Source of the DNA: a virus | Length of the DNA stretch: 64,000 nt | IMG/VR virus record: IMGVR_UViG_3300046507_000506 | Coordinates: 29,642-93,641 of that record | Direction: 5' to 3' (one strand) | In this document: piece after piece, positions 1 to 5,971 of the stretch | Layout: every line of letters begins with the position of its first letter | Numbering within the stretch: position 1 is the stretch's first letter | Made by a program: the position numbers and the translations under genes | Notes under the pieces: model-generated | Databases searched by the model: none | Seen by the model: only the letters and a program-made list of their open reading frames with translations | What the model was told of the DNA's origin: nothing

Positions 1-2827
1 ACGTCCAGCTTAGGAAGCCCTTTTTGCGATCCTCCGTCGCGCAGTAGTTTCGCAGCTCATCGCCGCTCGCGTCCGCGTTGCAGTAGTTCAGGCTGTAGAC
101 GTCGAAAACGTGCTTCGCGCGCAGCGTCATCAGCTGCTCGTTGACCTCCTTGGAGAACGCAAGCGAGTCCGCGTCTGTGAGCTTGAAATAAGCCCCGGTG
201 TTCTCATTCCATCCCGTCAGCCACGACTCGAACATCACGCCCGAACACGACTGGATATAGTTGTTCAGGTTCGAGAATCCCCGGTTTGAAATCAGCTTCG
301 TGCCGGTTCGCGCCTTCAGGTTGTTCACGAGCGCAGCCATCGCGTCGCCCATCTGCGGATACACGTCGGCATCGTCAGGCGTGTCCATGAAAATGCCGTT
401 CATGCGGTGCCCCTTGCGGGTGTACGAAATCAGCAAGGTCTGATTCGCCGTCACCGCAGGCGTGATGCCCGCATTGAACACAAAGGCTCCCGTCTTCATG
501 TCCATCGTGTAGTCCGCATTCTTGCGATAGATGCCCGTCACGCCATCGAGCGTGGTGAGGGTGATATCCGCGTCCGCATCAATCGGGAATTGCGCCGTAT
601 CGAACACGAGCACCGGACCTGATGAAATCGTGGCCGCCTTGACCGTGACCGCCTCGTTTGTCACGACGACCGGGCCTCCGAGCACGGTCGGCACGTAGTA
701 GCTCATGATGCGATCCAGCCACGACGGCTTGCCCGCGTCCGCGTAGTACGCCGCCCACACGCCATTCTGATCGGGCACGGTCGGATTGGCGATGCTGAAG
801 TCCTGCATGTAGCCGCCATCGACCTGTTGATATTTCGGGCACTTGGTGCCCGTTTGCAGTTGGTGGATGGGCTTGTAGCTTGGGCAGGTTGCGTTCGTGC
901 AGGCGGTGTTCGCATCCGGCCGCTGCCATTTGTTCGCCGACGTGAAGCCCGCACCGCAAGCGCCACCGGTTGAAAACGCCAGATACCCGTTCAGGCTGTC
1001 GAAGCTACAGGCCGCGCTGCAACGGCCGGTTCCCATGAAGTACATAGGTTGGGCCTGCGCACAGGTCTTGGTGCCCGCCACGGCCTGATTGTCGAATGTG
1101 CACTCGGTGCATTCGCGACCCTGATACCCGCCCTTCATGTAGTAGCTGGCATTGCCACCCGGCCCGCCACCATCGCCGACATAAGGCGCATTGGCCGAAA
1201 GGAAGTCGTACCGGTTCGAGTAGAAACCATCCTCCTCGCCTATCGAGATATAGCCGTACACCTCGATACCCATTGCCTGCCACGCCAGCACGTCGGCCGC
1301 GCGCGCCGCAAACGGATCGACAATCAGAATGTCGTACTGCGCGAGGGTATCGGCATAGCCCGGCTGGTAGCACACGGCATAGGTCGGAAAGCGCTCAAGC
1401 ACCTCGGTGTATGCGATGTTGCTGTTCTGCCGCACGACCGCGCCGGACGAATCGAGCGCACCCGCCACCGGCGCATCGTAGGAAAGCGAATAGCCATCGT
1501 CCGCCACATTGACCACCGGCAGCGCATACGGCTGCTGCGCATTGGCAACGATGTTCACCGTCTCGGTGATCTGCGAATAGAACGCGCTCGCGGTCCAGCT
1601 TGCCGAGACAAAAATCACGAACTTTTTGCTCGTCGTGCTCTGGCGTAACACGCAGGTATTCGTGCCGGTCGCGGGCCATCCCGAAATCGTTGCGGTGAAA
1701 AGCTGATCCTGATTTGCATTACATGACACGGTCCCCATGAGGGTGCCGTTACCGTCATAGACGTTGAAAATCCCGTAGCCGAAATCCTGCTCGACCGTGA
1801 TCGACAACGATGAACCGGTGAAGGTAAAGGAAAGCTGGTTCGACGCGCTCCCGGCTGCATTGTTGTAGATACGCGTCACGCCGCCGGGCGCGGCCGTGTC
1901 CTTTGACCATGCACCCGTCGCGGTGATCGCGGAACTGTCCGCCGCCATTGTCACATTGACGGCCTGGCTGATCGTTCCATTCGGGTCTTGATACAGCGCC
2001 GAGAGCGCGAGCGGAAACACCTTCTGCCCGCTGACTTCGTCGCCGGTGAAAGCGGGCATGATGACCTGATGCACCGGCGCGCCGTCATTGAGCACGGCCG
2101 CGCTGGTTGGAGCGAGCGCAGCATTGTTCGCATCCACCACCGTGGCCGGATAGGTGAGCGAGACATTGGTAATCGCCTTGCCGCTGCGATTGACGAGGCT
2201 CAGCGTCTGCTGGTTCTGCACGAGCTTTTTGCTCGACGGCACAATCCAGACAGCGTCCTGCACGAGGTCACGGCTCTGGAAGCTGTACGTCTTGTAGCCT
2301 GCGAGCGCGAGATACGCCTCGCCGGTGCCGTTCGCATAGATCACGCAGGTATGCGGACCATTGCTCAGGCCGTCGGCCACGAGCACATCAGCGTAGTCCG
2401 GCCCGTCTAGCTGGTAGGTTGCCGAGTCGCAGGAAACCGTGTTCGCGTAGCCAAGAATGCCGCTGATGGTCGAGGGCTGTACGCCGTCGATAAAGACCTT
2501 ATGCGCGGTCCCCCATCCAAAGTCCGTATTCAGACGCAGCACGAGCGTTGTGCCGGTGAAATGGATTGTGACCGCACCCTTCAGACAGAAGGCGCGCTTT
2601 TCCTGCAACGTCGTCGGGATTGTGTTCGGGCCGCTGTCGCGCACCCAGTCGCTTGTCCCGACGTTCGTGCTCGGCGGAATGGTGAAATTGCCACTCGATA
2701 GCGAGACGCTGGCGTCATCAATGCTGGCCCACTGGGAGCGGTTATCACGGTAGTTCGTACCAACGCCGTCCCACGTCTGACTGCTCTGGATCAACACCGC
2801 ATCGGTGTATTTTACGAGCGCTGCCAT
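1..2827 (-). CDS. Large virion/tail-associated protein (>942 aa, runs off window) with beta-rich N-terminal domains and a C-terminal GH114/GH166 (PelA-like) glycoside hydrolase barrel; putative depolymerase
   Basis: Manual translation from ATG 2827 (TAATG overlap with upstream stop) is open to base 1: MAALVKYTDAV...YDILIVDP...YGYISIGEED...GIFMDTPD...LISNRGF...GVMFES...VYSLNY. Absent from ORF track because there is no stop in the window. Confidence 0.8.
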   Translation of the reverse strand, partial: MAALVKYTDAVLIQSSQTWDGVGTNYRDNRSQWASIDDASVSLSSGNFTIPPSTNVGTSDWVRDSGPNTIPTTLQEKRAFCLKGAVTIHFTGTTLVLRLNTDFGWGTAHKVFIDGVQPSTISGILGYANTVSCDSATYQLDGPDYADVLVADGLSNGPHTCVIYANGTGEAYLALAGYKTYSFQSRDLVQDAVWIVPSSKKLVQNQQTLSLVNRSGKAITNVSLTYPATVVDANNAALAPTSAAVLNDGAPVHQVIMPAFTGDEVSGQKVFPLALSALYQDPNGTISQAVNVTMAADSSAITATGAWSKDTAAPGGVTRIYNNAAGSASNQLSFTFTGSSLSITVEQDFGYGIFNVYDGNGTLMGTVSCNANQDQLFTATISGWPATGTNTCVLRQSTTSKKFVIFVSASWTASAFYSQITETVNIVANAQQPYALPVVNVADDGYSLSYDAPVAGALDSSGAVVRQNSNIAYTEVLERFPTYAVCYQPGYADTLAQYDILIVDPFAARAADVLAWQAMGIEVYGYISIGEEDGFYSNRYDFLSANAPYVGDGGGPGGNASYYMKGGYQGRECTECTFDNQAVAGTKTCAQAQPMYFMGTGRCSAACSFDSLNGYLAFSTGGACGAGFTSANKWQRPDANTACTNATCPSYKPIHQLQTGTKCPKYQQVDGGYMQDFSIANPTVPDQNGVWAAYYADAGKPSWLDRIMSYYVPTVLGGPVVVTNEAVTVKAATISSGPVLVFDTAQFPIDADADITLTTLDGVTGIYRKNADYTMDMKTGAFVFNAGITPAVTANQTLLISYTRKGHRMNGIFMDTPDDADVYPQMGDAMAALVNNLKARTGTKLISNRGFSNLNNYIQSCSGVMFESWLTGWNENTGAYFKLTDADSLAFSKEVNEQLMTLRAKHVFDVYSLNYCNADASGDELRNYCATEDRKKGFLSWT

Positions 2828-3438
2828 TACTGAATCCCAAGGAGCTTGATTTCCACATCCAGCGTCATTGGGTTGGCATCAATGTTCGTGACGAGCACAA
2901 ACAGATTGCCGGACGCAAGCGGCGGAATGAAAAAGGAGGCGTTGTCGATAAAGGCCGGATCGGTGATCCCGCTCGACCGGTAGAGCAGCGCACCGGCCGC
3001 GCTGCCGTCATAAAACTCCAGTTCGTAGTTCTGGTTGCCGACGGTCTGATTGGTCGCCTTCACCTGCAACACGAACGAACCGAACGCCGTGCCCACGGCG
3101 AGCGTTGCATTGGCTGTTGCGCCAACGGCGGCAGCAACCGCGATAGACGGCGGCGCGAGCGTGCGCGATGCCACGCCCTCCGTTGCGGTCGAGGCCGCAA
3201 GTTGGGCGGCGGCGGCACTGTCAGAAGCCTGTTGCGCGCTTGTCGATGCGTGGCCCTCCGACGTGGATGCAGCTTGGGCGGCAGCTTCGGCGGCGGCAGC
3301 AGAGGCAGCGGCATCGCCGATCTGACCCAACGCCGTCGTCGCGGTCTGCGCAGCGTCCGTCGCCTGCGCGACAAGCGCTTTCATCGTCTTGGAAATGCCC
3401 GTAAGCTGCCAGAGCTTTATCCACTCGCCATAGTTCAT
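2827..3438 (-). CDS. Tail fibre-associated protein with Ala/Ser-rich helical repeat and beta-rich C-terminus
   Basis: AAASAAAAEAAAQAASTSEGHASTSAQQASDSAAAA resembles tail-fibre shaft repeats; coupled to both neighbours. Confidence 0.6.
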   Translation of the reverse strand: MNYGEWIKLWQLTGISKTMKALVAQATDAAQTATTALGQIGDAAASAAAAEAAAQAASTSEGHASTSAQQASDSAAAAQLAASTATEGVASRTLAPPSIAVAAAVGATANATLAVGTAFGSFVLQVKATNQTVGNQNYELEFYDGSAAGALLYRSSGITDPAFIDNASFFIPPLASGNLFVLVTNIDANPMTLDVEIKLLGIQ

Positions 3439-3629
3439 TGCTTCACCCAGGCGCTTTCGCTGGTCATGCCCATCGCGGTGAAGGTGTAGGTCTTCTTGAA
3501 CTTCGTCACGCCGTCCGGTGCCGTGACGGTGTCGCTGTCCATCTGCCCGTCAGGACCGTTGTACGTGTAGTCGTGCTTGCACAGTTCCGTGTCGATAAAC
3601 CCGGCTGTCGCGTCATAGATAATTGCCAC
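3435..3629 (-). CDS. Small hypothetical late protein
   Basis: 64 aa, ATGA overlap with next gene, directly downstream of late-promoter motif. Confidence 0.65.
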   Translation of the reverse strand: MAIIYDATAGFIDTELCKHDYTYNGPDGQMDSDTVTAPDGVTKFKKTYTFTAMGMTSESAWVKQ

Positions 3630-3657
3630 GGAATGCCCCTATAGATACCGTGCGTCG

Positions 3658-3700
3658 ATTATCAGAGGGCAAGGCGGCGCGGGCGGGCGTGCTTTTCCGA
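3658..3700 (-). promoter_or_regulatory. Putative late promoter TCGGAAAA-N29-GATAAT
   Basis: Same motif and spacing as at 9469, 39737, 43048, 48608 and 59091. Confidence 0.7.
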
Positions 3701-3705
3701 GGAGC

Positions 3706-3891
3706 TTATTCGAGCGCGGTTTTCACGAGCACCGCGAGGCGTAGATACTCGCCTACCCACTTCGGGAACCTCTGCGCGCCCATCCATCGCGAAACGGTCG
3801 TCGGATCGACGCCGAGGCGGCGCGCGAACTCTGCTTGCGTCCATCCAAGCGTGGCGAGAGAATGGGAAAAGTCGGCTGTTTTCATAGCCAT
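3706..3891 (-). CDS. Small XRE-family HTH protein
   Basis: LGWTQAEFARRLGVDPTTVSRW helix-turn-helix. Confidence 0.8.
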   Translation of the reverse strand: MAMKTADFSHSLATLGWTQAEFARRLGVDPTTVSRWMGAQRFPKWVGEYLRLAVLVKTALE

Positions 3892-3898
3892 GATCTTA

Positions 3899-3944
3899 GC
3901 AAAATGCAGAGCTTTGCGCGGGTCAGTATCTGCATTTTGCAGAT
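3899..3944. promoter_or_regulatory. Inverted-repeat operator-like site between divergent genes
   Basis: GCAAAATGCAGA (3899-3910) and TCTGCATTTTGC (3929-3940) are exact reverse complements; ATCTGCATTTTGCAGAT is itself near-palindromic. Confidence 0.55.
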
Positions 3945-3954
3945 TGGAGGGTTT

Positions 3955-4203
3955 ATGGACTTACCGCAAGCTGATGGCGCTGACCCGGCCACCGTTTTCA
4001 CGGCCGCACTTGCCGCCCTGTTCAGCACACACCCCGATCCTGCGGCCCTCCTGAAGGCTTGGGAGCCCGTCGCCACGTCCATCCCCCTGATGATGCTGAA
4101 GAACGGCGCTACGGACGTGCACGCGAATGCAAACGTGGTGATCGCGCAGGCACTGCTCCATATCGCGCGAGTGAATGCAGGCGCGCCGCCACCTGTTGAC
4201 TAG
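3955..4203 (+). CDS. Hypothetical protein (MDLPQADG...)
   Basis: GGAGG RBS before ATG 3955. Confidence 0.65.
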   Translation: MDLPQADGADPATVFTAALAALFSTHPDPAALLKAWEPVATSIPLMMLKNGATDVHANANVVIAQALLHIARVNAGAPPPVD

Positions 4204-4396
4204 GAAACCCGCGCTTCATACACTGGCGACGCTTTCACACATGGCGGCTTGGTGCAGTAAGAGCCTGCCCCGCCAGTGCCAGCCGGTCGCGCGAGCGACG
4301 TATGCGGATAGCCGCCATTGTGAAAGCCGCTCCCATGCGGTCCAGTTAGCAAGTCGCCTTGTGCCGCTTGTCCGCATCGCTGCAATGGGAGCACCT

Positions 4397-4536
4397 TCAG
4401 CACGGCCGTAGCTCAGTTGGTAGAGCGCCCCTCGTATGGGGAGAGAAGTAGTCGCGAAATGGCGGTAGCGCCCGCGCGACGATCTTCCGGTATCGGCCGG
4501 TACGCGCGCGGGTTCGAATCCCGTCGGCCGTGCTGA
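4397..4536 (+). ncRNA. tRNA-like RNA with canonical D and T arms but no canonical anticodon arm
   Basis: TAGCTCAGTTGGTAGAGC D arm, GCGGGTTCGAATCCCGT T arm, 12-bp closing stem TCAGCACGGCCG/CGGCCGTGCTGA, ~80-nt multi-hairpin insert, no CCA. Confidence 0.7.
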
Positions 4537-4871
4537 GGGTGAATGGTGGACGTGAAACTATGTCCCTTACTTTGCATGCACTGACCTGCCTCTGACTGTA
4601 CTGCGAATCAGACCGAGTCATCATTCACTCTCAACAGATGCGGAACCGTGGGCGGCGGTGAGTCAGTAGGGAAAGCGTCGATTGAACGATGTAGCGTTCG
4701 GCGCGGAGCCCGAAAGCAATAGACCGTGCGAGTGGTCGAGCATGCCGTTAAAGCGCAAGGTTCTGGCGCATGAGCAGGGGAAGGGCCTGCACTCTCACGC
4801 ATGGCGATCGGTGGAGTACCGTTCAAGAAATCGTCAGTTCCGTGCGCTTGCGGAACCAGTCGCCATGACGT

Positions 4872-4946
4872 GAGAGTGATCGGATAGTGGAAAGCGCAGG
4901 CGTCACAGCCGTCTAGCAGGGTTCGATACCGTGCCCTTTCACTCTC
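4872..4946 (+). ncRNA. Second, degenerate tRNA-like element
   Basis: GAGAGTGA/TCACTCTC closing stem, TAGTGGAAAG D-loop-like segment, GGC-GTCACA-GCC hairpin, GGTTCGATACC T-loop. Confidence 0.5.
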
Positions 4947-5031
4947 AACGCGCGGCCTGTAAGGGTTGTACCGGCCAGCCAGTGACCCCTTAAAAGGTCC
5001 GCCGCGCACCCTTCCCCCTCACACCACCACC

Positions 5032-5514
5032 ATGACATTTCCCTTCCGCGATACCGAAGCGGCGCTAATGGCCGCCGAAATTCGAGAGCAGATTTACGAG
5101 GATTTCCGTTCGGTTGTGGGCACGAATGAGCCCAAGCCTTATACACCGCCCGCGCCGATGCCGACATACGAGGAAATGACCGAGCAGTTGCATCGCGCGG
5201 CGAATCCCACGCCTGCCGACGTGGCGGCGCGCATGCTCAACCAGCAAGCGCAATCCGGTGCACCGCCTTGGTCTTGGGAATGGGTGATGGGCGAACCGCT
5301 ATGGCTCGAAATGCGCCGGGCAATGAAGCGCGTGAAGCGTGAAGCGCCCGCGTATGCGCCGCTGCCGGAAAGCGTCACCAAGCCGGAAGTGCTCGACCTG
5401 GTAGACCTGCGCGACGCTGGCTATGAGTTGTTGGACGTGACAGCCGACGGCGTTGTTACGCTGCGCTCGCCCCATACCGTGCGAGCCGTCTACATGACTG
5501 CGACCATTCGCTAG
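5032..5514 (+). CDS. Hypothetical protein
   Basis: Open frame from ATG 5032, followed by terminator. Confidence 0.65.
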   Translation: MTFPFRDTEAALMAAEIREQIYEDFRSVVGTNEPKPYTPPAPMPTYEEMTEQLHRAANPTPADVAARMLNQQAQSGAPPWSWEWVMGEPLWLEMRRAMKRVKREAPAYAPLPESVTKPEVLDLVDLRDAGYELLDVTADGVVTLRSPHTVRAVYMTATIR

Positions 5515-5532
5515 TGATCGCGCCAAGCCAAC

Positions 5533-5564
5533 GAAAAGGCCCGGCATTGCGTCCGGGCCTTTTC
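5533..5564. terminator. Bidirectional rho-independent terminator
   Basis: GAAAAGGCCCGG...CCGGGCCTTTTC between convergent genes. Confidence 0.85.
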
Positions 5565-5572
5565 ACATTCCG

Positions 5573-5971
5573 CTAGATCGGGTGATTCTTTACGAGGTAT
5601 TCGCTCGCCTCGTCTACCGTATCAAACTCAGCGAGCACAACGTAATCCTCATCCGGGCGTTGCGGCATTCGCGCCAGCTTGACCTTGGGCACGTCCATGA
5701 TGATGGTCGGACGCTGGCGACCGCGCAGATAGTCCGCCTGCAACGCCTCTGCCAGTATGCAAGCCTCATCATAGGTATCGACCATGCCGAGGTATGTGGG
5801 CCGGTCCCACGCGCCGCCGTTCAGGCATCGGACCTCGATCTTTCCATCGTCTCGCGTTACGCCGTAAGGATGATCCCACCAGGCATCAAGCTCGGCTTTG
5901 CTGCGCTCCTCATTGGGCGTGGCGTCGAACATTTCCGGCAGGTCTGGATCAAGGGGAATGCGGTTGGGCAT
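5573..5971 (-). CDS. Hypothetical protein
   Basis: 132 aa, AAAAGGAG RBS, protein-like composition. Confidence 0.75.
   Translation of the reverse strand: MPNRIPLDPDLPEMFDATPNEERSKAELDAWWDHPYGVTRDDGKIEVRCLNGGAWDRPTYLGMVDTYDEACILAEALQADYLRGRQRPTIIMDVPKVKLARMPQRPDEDYVVLAEFDTVDEASEYLVKNHPI

Follow-up and report, generated by a model that had tools for sequence, protein, structure and literature searches.

A probable array of structured RNA modules, including a transfer RNA mimic without an anticodon, in a Burkholderia-type phage-plasmid

The DNA analysed here – hereafter the window – is a stretch of 64 kb from the IMG/VR virus record IMGVR_UViG_3300046507_000506, a genome of 93,641 bp rated complete. 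Between positions 4231 and 5007 its + strand carries ~0.8 kb that is free of open reading frames (ORFs) and composed of eight stem-closed modules, M1 to M8. It is very probable that this is a real array of structured RNAs specified by the + strand: four of the modules (M6, M3, M5 and M7) belong to conserved RNA families with compensatory changes. The original prediction, made from the letters of the window, had described an ORF-free array of stem-closed modules over the same interval, and every stem that it named is present; closing stems lie at 4231-4327 (arms 4231-4249 / 4310-4327), 4329-4393, 4392-4541, 4535-4633, 4790-4878, 4871-4947 and 4948-5007. The structures, their strand, their family membership and the promoter motif are observations; from these we infer transcription, processing and function.

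Several properties concern the array as a whole. ORFs inside it have flat GC content by codon position (e.g. 0.61/0.60/0.56, against ~0.6/0.45/0.75 in real genes of the genome) and homologues differ by an 11-nt insertion or deletion within 4634-4789: the array is thus non-coding. The 807-nt stretch folds better than its shuffled controls, as the original prediction supposed, with z = -4.4 on the + strand and -3.6 on the - strand. The module stems contain 22 G-U pairs; the two in the 4535-4633 stem had been put forward as support for the + strand. A sigma-70-like promoter, TTGACT-17-TACACT, lies at 4196-4224 on the + strand – the sole promoter-like site called in the 2.3 kb from 3500 to 5800 – and its placement predicts that transcription starts at ~4231, where M1 begins. 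Paraburkholderia sp. C35, pBVIE05 (of B. vietnamiensis G4) and the viral contig L129 preserve both the -10 box and the distance between it and GCTTTCA (four arrays including the window). The reported recurrence of CACTCTC is likewise real: copies at 4626, 4790 and 4940 account for three of the four + strand copies in the 93.6-kb genome.

Covariation in homologues, on which the original prediction depended, proved strong for M6, M3 and M5. M6 (4788-4880, + strand) belongs to a family of hairpins, termed D, and reads X-AC-GCAUGGCGAU...AGUCGCCA-UGAC-GU-X', where X (CACUCUCA) and X' (UGAGRGUG) are complementary linker boxes that join modules. Its upper helix is conserved and its lower stem covaries; the hairpin also has a small internal loop and a tip, the 'cargo', that varies. 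From the outside inward the architecture of the family is a variable lower stem X:X', a conserved ACG/CGU, a 2x2 internal loop (A.G, C.Y), the helix UGGCGAUU/AGUCGCCA and a variable tip of ~40-60 nt. Members were sought by scanning IMG/VR for GCATGGCGAT, a 40-65 nt gap and AGTCGCCA; this returned 106 loci, and 51 distinct sequences with at least 8 of 10 flanking-stem pairs, from contigs of 38-65% GC, form the D set. The search pattern itself forces the D core to be invariant within the set, but not the flanks to covary. At positions 6-12 of the lower (outer) stem pairing is seen in 314 of 357 combinations (207 +/- 9 when partners are shuffled), and the family has more G-U than A-C (41 versus 7). 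An alignment of 49 sequences has 90.4% of its cells paired (77.9 +/- 0.8 in shuffles; slid registers 30-52%) and 151 compensatory cells (61 +/- 6 in shuffles). A covariance model (R2), built from 49 other viral contigs with the window left out, gives M6 a + strand score of 44.8 bits (E 4e-12), compared with 36.0 bits for the - strand, a difference that joins the G-U pairs as evidence for the + strand. The 3' side of M6 carries a variant, CCAUGACGUG in place of CCAGYCGUG, in common with L122 and L091. No Rfam match to D was obtained in the window, in eleven related loci or in the leader of phage P1. With R2, a search of 151 class-level genomes found G001 only, a sampling floor at which few candidates per genome were scored.

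M1 (4231-4327, + strand) is a long bulged hairpin at the 5' terminus of the array, with a UGGCGG/CCGCCA core and a fold of -46.6 kcal/mol. R2 scores it at 16 bits (4230-4328; E 0.017), a borderline value at which M1 may be a diverged paralogue of the D hairpin; a direct repeat (D1) that links M1 with 4792-4806 in M6 also hints, weakly, at paralogy between the two. The closing stem of M1 covaries with those of pBVIE05 and C35, and its interior is 84% identical to that of a D-like hairpin in the P2-like Burkholderia phage Mana. Another 'cargo' interior is common to C35 and L129. Since interiors recur in the D frames of other phages, D-type stems serve as frames whose interiors can be exchanged, and each array is a mosaic with its joints at X boxes. 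The earlier description of the interiors as unrelated therefore needs amending: M1 has its frame in common with M6, and several interiors are found again in other phages.

By eye, the recognisable neighbours of the 51 D loci include the terminase small subunit, capsid, ParB-methylase, integrase and DUF2829. A gene for an SOS-response-associated peptidase (SRAP) lies ~1.7 kb from the D-like hairpin of phage Mana, and the array in genome G384 (L013 700-1110, 1660-1870) follows an SRAP-like ORF and is broken off by a transposase-like ORF; the proximity of SRAP in G384 and in Mana (L003 15-731) may be coincidental.

The second family is represented by M3 (4392-4541, + strand; tRNA-like core 4402-4532), a tRNA mimic without an anticodon. 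It combines a 12-17 bp acceptor helix that runs into the X/X' boxes, canonical D and T arms and two insert hairpins, and its arms follow the normal tRNA order, acceptor-D-(hairpins)-T-acceptor. The resemblance to tRNA noted in the original prediction is borne out by Rfam, whose tRNA model (RF00005) matches 4402-4532 with 43.7 bits, above the gathering score of 29, but only in an alignment that passes over the anticodon arm along with ~60 inserted bases. No tRNA gene is called by ARAGORN in the window or in the whole genome. At the anticodon position stands the hairpin CCCC-UCGUAU-GGGG, with 4 bp and a 6-nt loop rather than a 5-bp stem and a 7-nt loop; relatives have CCCUC-AUUGA-GAGGG and CCCC-GUCGA-GGGG there. 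M3 encodes no CCA and does not have the 7-bp acceptor with a single-stranded 3' end.

Selection on the fold of M3 is apparent in an alignment (A1) of six sequences: the window, pBVIE05, C35, a metagenome contig and two enterobacterial-type viral contigs. Compensatory changes are found in 17 of 39 pairs, while U8, the D-loop GG and the T-loop GGUUCGAAUCC are invariant. At first glance the anticodon-like hairpin CCCCUCGUAUGGGG is also invariant over the six; this is an ascertainment bias of the search pattern, because members found by model carry other sequences at that place. Such members occur in two Burkholderiaceae genomes (121 and 85 bits), and a search of 151 Burkholderiaceae genomes (G001 included) with model R1 matched G001 and G021, a count that the sampling makes a floor. 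Over 21 nt M3 is identical to the D arm of the P1 tRNA-Thr. The tip of its second insert hairpin is self-complementary (GGCC; AGCU in the enterobacterial relatives). The strand GGCCGGUAC (4495-4503) of this hairpin is perfectly complementary to the loop of M8, GUACCGGCC (4968-4976), a match that could reflect a long-range or intermolecular kissing contact.

M5 ('module C'; 4634-4789, + strand) is a multi-stem element of ~156 nt with a purine-rich hairpin loop, GGGGAAGGG, at 4777-4785. It is kept in three other Burkholderia-type arrays – C35 (94.5% identity over 128 nt), L010 (85.8% over 183 nt) and the genome locus L013 – and in the resulting alignment (A2, four sequences) 10 of 36 pairs are compensatory. 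It is rare, with clear matches in 2 of 400 Burkholderiaceae genomes. M7 (4871-4947, + strand; inverted repeats I25 and I14) is closed by X' UGAGAGUGA and X UCACUCUCA and contains a GGC/GCC hairpin and a T-arm-like hairpin (GGUUCGAUACC). A near-identical M7 occurs in the same frame in L129, and its core lies within the D hairpins of L079 and L128.

Three modules remain. M4 (4535-4633, + strand; inverted repeat I3) folds between X' GAGGGUGAAUGGUG and X CAUCAUUCACUCUC with 14 pairs, the two G-U among them, and modules of the same position and frame are present in L010 and L013. M2 (4329-4393, + strand), closed by GCUCCCAUGCGG and CUGCAAUGGGAGC with a fold of -31.0 kcal/mol, gave no family, and the equivalent position in L010 holds an unrelated hairpin. 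M8 (4948-5007, + strand), the terminal hairpin, with the loop GUACCGGCC, inverted repeat I22 and a fold of -26.1 kcal/mol, gave no homologue.

An unusual feature of the array is the way in which its modules are joined. As X and X' are complementary between neighbours, each X' can close either the preceding or the following module. In the window this three-strand design is seen twice: 4535-4541 is common to the helices of M3 and M4, and 4871-4878 to the stem of M6 and to M7. The mutually exclusive M3 and M4 conformers are near-isoenergetic (-101.5 versus -99.3 kcal/mol, 2.2 apart); those of M6 and M7 differ by 7.4 (-66.7 kcal/mol with M6 closed, -59.3 with M7 closed). The same arrangement is found in many phages, where a tRNA-shaped cloverleaf, E, stands directly 3' of D, its closing stem reuses the X' strand of D, and E is followed by a further copy of X. 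Covariation with X' across D-E units of unrelated phages involves both copies of X, the one upstream and the one downstream. The layout of E is X'-GAAU, a hairpin with a AGGCUGAU loop, a hairpin with a AGAUCAGCA loop that kisses it, and then X. Across the family 94.5% of cells are paired, 37 cells are compensatory (11 +/- 2 in shuffles) and the 6-bp loop-loop helix is nearly invariant. The model of E (R3) scores 77.6 bits in P1 and 35.8 bits in C35; a second E-type copy in P1 coincides with a sub-threshold match to STnc100 (33.4 bits, gathering score 47). R3 finds no E module in 4200-5040, its best matches in the window lying elsewhere at E > 0.1, and M4, considered as a candidate E-type cloverleaf, was rejected as R3 does not match it.

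A connection with tRNA operons emerges from the distribution of the modules in other phages. We scanned 55 loci of the D, tRNA-mimic and M7 types for tRNA genes and found them at 10, in every case on the strand of the modules and within ~0.7 kb of them. In L021, L055 and L106 the tRNA genes are contiguous with or overlap the modules; D, E and tRNA are contiguous in L055, and the leader of the P1 ban operon interleaves three tRNAs with an E module. In L021 (2851-3030) and L106 (9476-9632) the overlap involves the 3' end (CCA region) of a real tRNA gene and the 5' strand of the lower stem of D, so that D would compete with the acceptor stem for that strand. The phage genome in which the window lies (G000) has no real tRNA gene.

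What, then, might such an array be for? The reading that we favour, to which we assign a probability of about one half, is that it forms a tRNA-operon-like precursor that would be cut by host nucleases into stable small RNAs. The sigma-70 promoter at 4196-4224 would start a + strand RNA at ~4231, which would fold into the eight stem-closed modules: the D-type M6 and the diverged M1 with their variable 'cargo' tips, the tRNA mimic M3, the T-arm-like M7 and the 156-nt M5 as members of families. Maturation of the primary transcript would fall to the tRNA- and rRNA-processing nucleases of the host: RNase P (and possibly RNase Z or E) would cut where modules are tRNA-shaped, and the bulged hairpins of roughly 22 bp would be substrates of RNase III or E. 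With each cut an X' strand would become free to close the module that follows, so that the X/X' boxes would order both folding and cutting. The products would be several stable small RNAs, and these would be expected to work through host factors, because the phage encodes no obvious RNA partner: no Ro/TROVE protein, reverse transcriptase, RtcB or CCA-adding enzyme is encoded in G000.

Several observations weigh against this reading. The acceptor helix of M3 continues 5-10 pairs past +1 and no CCA is encoded, features that disfavour direct cleavage by RNase P. The upper helix of D (UGGCGAUU/AGUCGCCA) is strongly conserved in sequence, in part as a product of the search pattern; where real, this conservation points to a sequence-specific partner and not to RNase III, an enzyme of little sequence preference. 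The window is without the E cloverleaf that usually follows D. The D family is sparse, its exact core being absent from all 401 sampled Gammaproteobacteria genomes, a figure to be taken as a sampling floor. Among public sequencing runs none of RNA is listed as containing the array stretch, the only one to contain it in full being a DNA run from a rhizosphere metagenome, which may be where the contig came from.

The proposal of a processed precursor has a wider form, reached by analogy, which we put forward tentatively and regard as doubtful. The unit X-D-X'-(tRNA-shaped module)-X may be a general phage system for RNA production, a bacterial counterpart of the tRNA-hairpin fusions of herpesviruses, in which tRNA-shaped handles that recruit RNase P or Z, and strand exchange triggered by each cut at a shared X' box, would bring about the ordered release of D 'cargo' and mimics, these serving as decoys or regulators of host tRNA-directed defence or of processing enzymes. 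The TMERs of murine gammaherpesvirus 68 consist of a tRNA-like element fused to hairpin RNAs and are cut by tRNA-processing enzymes. The likeness lies in a tRNA-shaped handle beside hairpin 'cargo' within one transcript and is one of analogy, not homology; TMERs differ in belonging to a eukaryotic virus, in being transcribed by polymerase III and in carrying miRNA cargo.

It is also conceivable, if unlikely, that the array acts in cis, as a leader or riboswitch-like element in which the X/X' switch sets read-through, stability or translation of the mRNA of orf160, the next gene on the same strand (5032-5514). The array would form the 5' untranslated region of that gene, with no terminator called between them, and its exclusive conformers are near-isoenergetic. 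Moreover, the conserved, Shine-Dalgarno-like loop of M5 (GGGGAAGGG, 4777-4785) is complementary over 9 of 9 positions to 5009-5017, within a CU-rich tract, CCCUUCCCCCUC (5009-5020, + strand; inverted repeat I24), just 5' of the orf160 ATG. A precedent exists in E. coli K1, where deletion of the region of the prophage small RNA (sRNA) sRNA-17 raised the downstream yfdP and yfdR transcripts (PMC7719688). Yet the downstream genes differ among the window and its sister arrays C35 and pBVIE05, a terminator separates the L129 array from its orf160 homologue, the L010 and L133 arrays end in terminators, the pairing of M5 with the CU tract is missing in C35, and a switch needs far fewer than eight modules. 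Improbable too, in our estimate, is a role confined to decoys or sponges, whereby M3 and the T-arm module would tie up host proteins specific for the tRNA elbow or for the acceptor/T stack and so protect the translation of phage or lysogen; tRNA-cleaving defence nucleases, contact-dependent toxins and tRNA-processing enzymes are candidate targets. The full conservation of the D-loop GG, U8 and T-loop GGUUCGAAUCC beside an anticodon arm that is lost and variable in sequence speaks for such an account, as does selection on pairing across Burkholderia-type and enterobacterial phages; the phage, in addition, has no real tRNA. Against this, the array has no linked gene for defence or counter-defence and no known target, a decoy for anticodon nucleases would be expected to retain the anticodon loop, and the account, while it covers M3 and M7, leaves D, M5 and the X/X' design unexplained.

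Two further explanations have less to commend them. P1 and P4 make immunity RNAs processed by RNase P, and the original prediction named antisense regulation as one of two possible roles. On a reading modelled on P1 C4 and P4 CI, one or more processed modules would pair with early phage mRNAs beside the repressor gene. The array does adjoin a helix-turn-helix (HTH) regulator gene and an operator-like repeat; we nonetheless find the idea very unlikely. The C4 model (RF01695) gives no match, even at E <= 10, and the same modules lie beside terminase, capsid and tRNA genes in other phages. Antisense action on phage genes found no support either: 73 matches of at least 11 nt to the 93.6-kb genome compare with 40 +/- 9 in mononucleotide shuffles, and the longest, 15 nt, falls within the 12-17 nt maxima of the shuffles. 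No target in the phage genome stands out, in a search suited to long matches that leaves room for short seeds. That the array might have no function as RNA – being the remnant of a decaying phage tRNA cluster, or a DNA-level element such as an origin, pac or recombination site – we consider most improbable of all. M3 is tRNA-derived, with its 21 nt of identity to the P1 tRNA-Thr D arm, and the junctions of the mosaic arrays at short X boxes could be recombination sites. But compensatory changes preserve pairing in three families, the excess of G-U over A-C suits RNA and not duplex DNA, loss of the anticodon arm is consistent, unlike random decay, and the promoter is conserved at a fixed distance from the first module.

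For comparison with known families the whole 64 kb was scanned against Rfam at the gathering score, and 3900-5300, 11 related loci and the P1 leader were scanned at E <= 10; tRNA was the one family to reach its threshold. In the window there is no match to C4, YrlA, Y RNA, GOLLD, ROOL or STnc100; the identities that the original prediction had offered for checking (C4, Y RNA, GOLLD/ROOL) thus fell away. C4 antisense RNA (RF01695) and the STnc100-PasD class (RF02076) have no match in 3900-5300 at E <= 10, and the same holds for GOLLD, ROOL and other large ornate phage RNAs, of which none reaches the gathering score in the 64 kb. YrlA and Y RNA (RF02553, RF00019) were set aside: Rfam gives no match, the arm order of M3 is not permuted, and no TROVE gene (PF05731) is present in G000 or in the host genomes G001 and G384. 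A tandem-repeat RNA array of the CRISPR or ToxI-type antitoxin kind was also rejected, the repeats being boxes of 8-15 nt at irregular spacing and the modules mutually unlike. A text search did not find the D and E core sequences in papers.

The claim that the system was undescribed must be qualified. No Rfam family other than tRNA is represented in the array, but the same class of array occurs in the P1 ban-operon leader and in other phages, where it touches STnc100/PasD. The P1 leader comprises a repressor-controlled promoter, a 'dicF-like region', tRNA-Asn/Thr/Ile and unannotated structured modules beneath the doubtful genes upl and plp. Like the window's array, it is promoter-headed, mostly non-coding and confined to one strand of a phage-plasmid, and it mixes tRNA-type with other folded modules; the sister arrays C35, pBVIE05 and L010 have its E cloverleaf. 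Unlike P1, the window is without a real tRNA or E, and P1 for its part has neither a D hairpin (by R2) nor an M3-type mimic. STnc100 (RF02076), PasD1/PasD2 and the sRNA-17 of E. coli K1 are likewise prophage-borne small RNAs, and PasD and STnc100 have been reported as related sRNAs of the Hfq network (bioRxiv 10.64898/2026.05.13.724894); the link concerns the class of array and not the window's own modules.

YrlA (RF02553) invites a closer comparison. Like M3 it is a non-decoding tRNA mimic that keeps D and T arms and has no free CCA end, and it has a conserved bulged helix beside the tRNA-like domain, as here; D contains GGCGAUUG, one base off the YrlA motif GNCGAAN0-1G. In YrlA, however, the order is permuted (T arm, acceptor loop, D arm) and the tRNA-like domain lies in the Ro-binding stem (Chen et al. 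2014, PMC4201824), whereas M3 follows the normal tRNA order. The P1 C4 and P4 CI families differ from the window in two respects already given, the absence of an RF01695 match and of an antisense target. Together with the T4 stable RNAs C and D, which sit within a tRNA operon, C4 and the CI immunity RNA of P4 are small RNAs of phages that tRNA-processing enzymes cut out of longer transcripts.

Operons of tRNA genes are already known in phages, as are a few phage RNAs that resemble tRNA (C4, CI, YrlA, the T4 stable RNAs). Rfam has no entry for the D hairpin, for the tRNA mimic without an anticodon or for module C. Each of them has undergone strong compensatory evolution across phages of widely differing GC, and they have in common an unusual design that preserves, in one strand, the capacity to pair with either of two partners. 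Should the modules be processed decoys or regulators, they would add a layer of RNA to phage-host conflict and to the control of phage-plasmid lysogeny, and would explain 'gene-free' stretches in P1-like and lambdoid phages.

The setting of the array is that of a temperate, Burkholderia-type phage-plasmid. Genes for a terminase, a portal, a ParB-like partition protein, a replication initiator and an RdgC-type protein mark the genome as a phage-plasmid, and its nearest DNA relatives are Burkholderia and Paraburkholderia elements. The array lies past the tail-fibre genes. On its 5' side, and divergent from it, a gene at 3706-3891 (- strand) encodes a 61-aa HTH regulator of the Xre/Cro type (Pfam HTH_31, 2.9e-07, and HTH_3; phrog_4779, transcriptional regulator, 1.5e-10), and the same gene adjoins the arrays of pBVIE05, C35 and L129. 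Between the divergent genes, at 3900-3939, an 11-bp inverted repeat, CAAAATGCAGA / TCTGCATTTTG, was read from the sequence and may serve as an operator. It is followed by orf82 (3955-4203, + strand), a small conserved ORF with coding-like GC phase (0.71/0.48/0.72) and a homologue at the equivalent place in C35; neither Pfam nor PHROG has a match to it.

Downstream, orf160 is also coding-like (GC phase 0.66/0.48/0.71). It has no match in Pfam or PHROG, nor by tblastn in phage or plasmid collections. Its homologue in L129 (4639-4900) lies 3' of that array, there after a terminator, and has ...PMPTYEEMT..LHRAANPTPAD in common with it. Both begin at CCACCATGAC, with no visible ribosome-binding site. 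The unit is likely ended by a bidirectional terminator at ~5534-5563, a GC-rich hairpin with AAAA/TTTT flanks (both strands) that was read by eye; the terminator scan did not call it (only 4 T).

The 3' ends of related arrays offer further points of detail. Those of L010 (~1050-1113) and L133 (~2010-2070) close with a small RNA that bears CUUCCCC and with a terminator. The Betaproteobacteria toxic sRNA (RF02278) has no match in the window and sub-threshold matches in relatives – 26.8 bits in L010 and 31.2 in L033, against a gathering score of 50 – and the match in L010 is its 3' CUUCCCC module. In an enterobacterial array (L005 8321-8495) the 3' module consists of a terminator followed by a long hairpin, and is ~80% identical to stretches that are unannotated or labelled 'hypothetical protein' in 74 phage and 59 plasmid records, the phages including SfV, SfIV, mEp460 and Stx2c phages. 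Prophages of the mEp460 type are reported to carry sRNA-17 (PMC7719688).

At the start of the window, on the - strand, a tail-associated ORF of >942 aa (2-2827) matches phrog_37372 (E 2.7e-211) and, weakly, the carbohydrate-esterase domain CE2_N; beside it lies a tail-fibre-like ORF of 203 aa (2827-3438, - strand).

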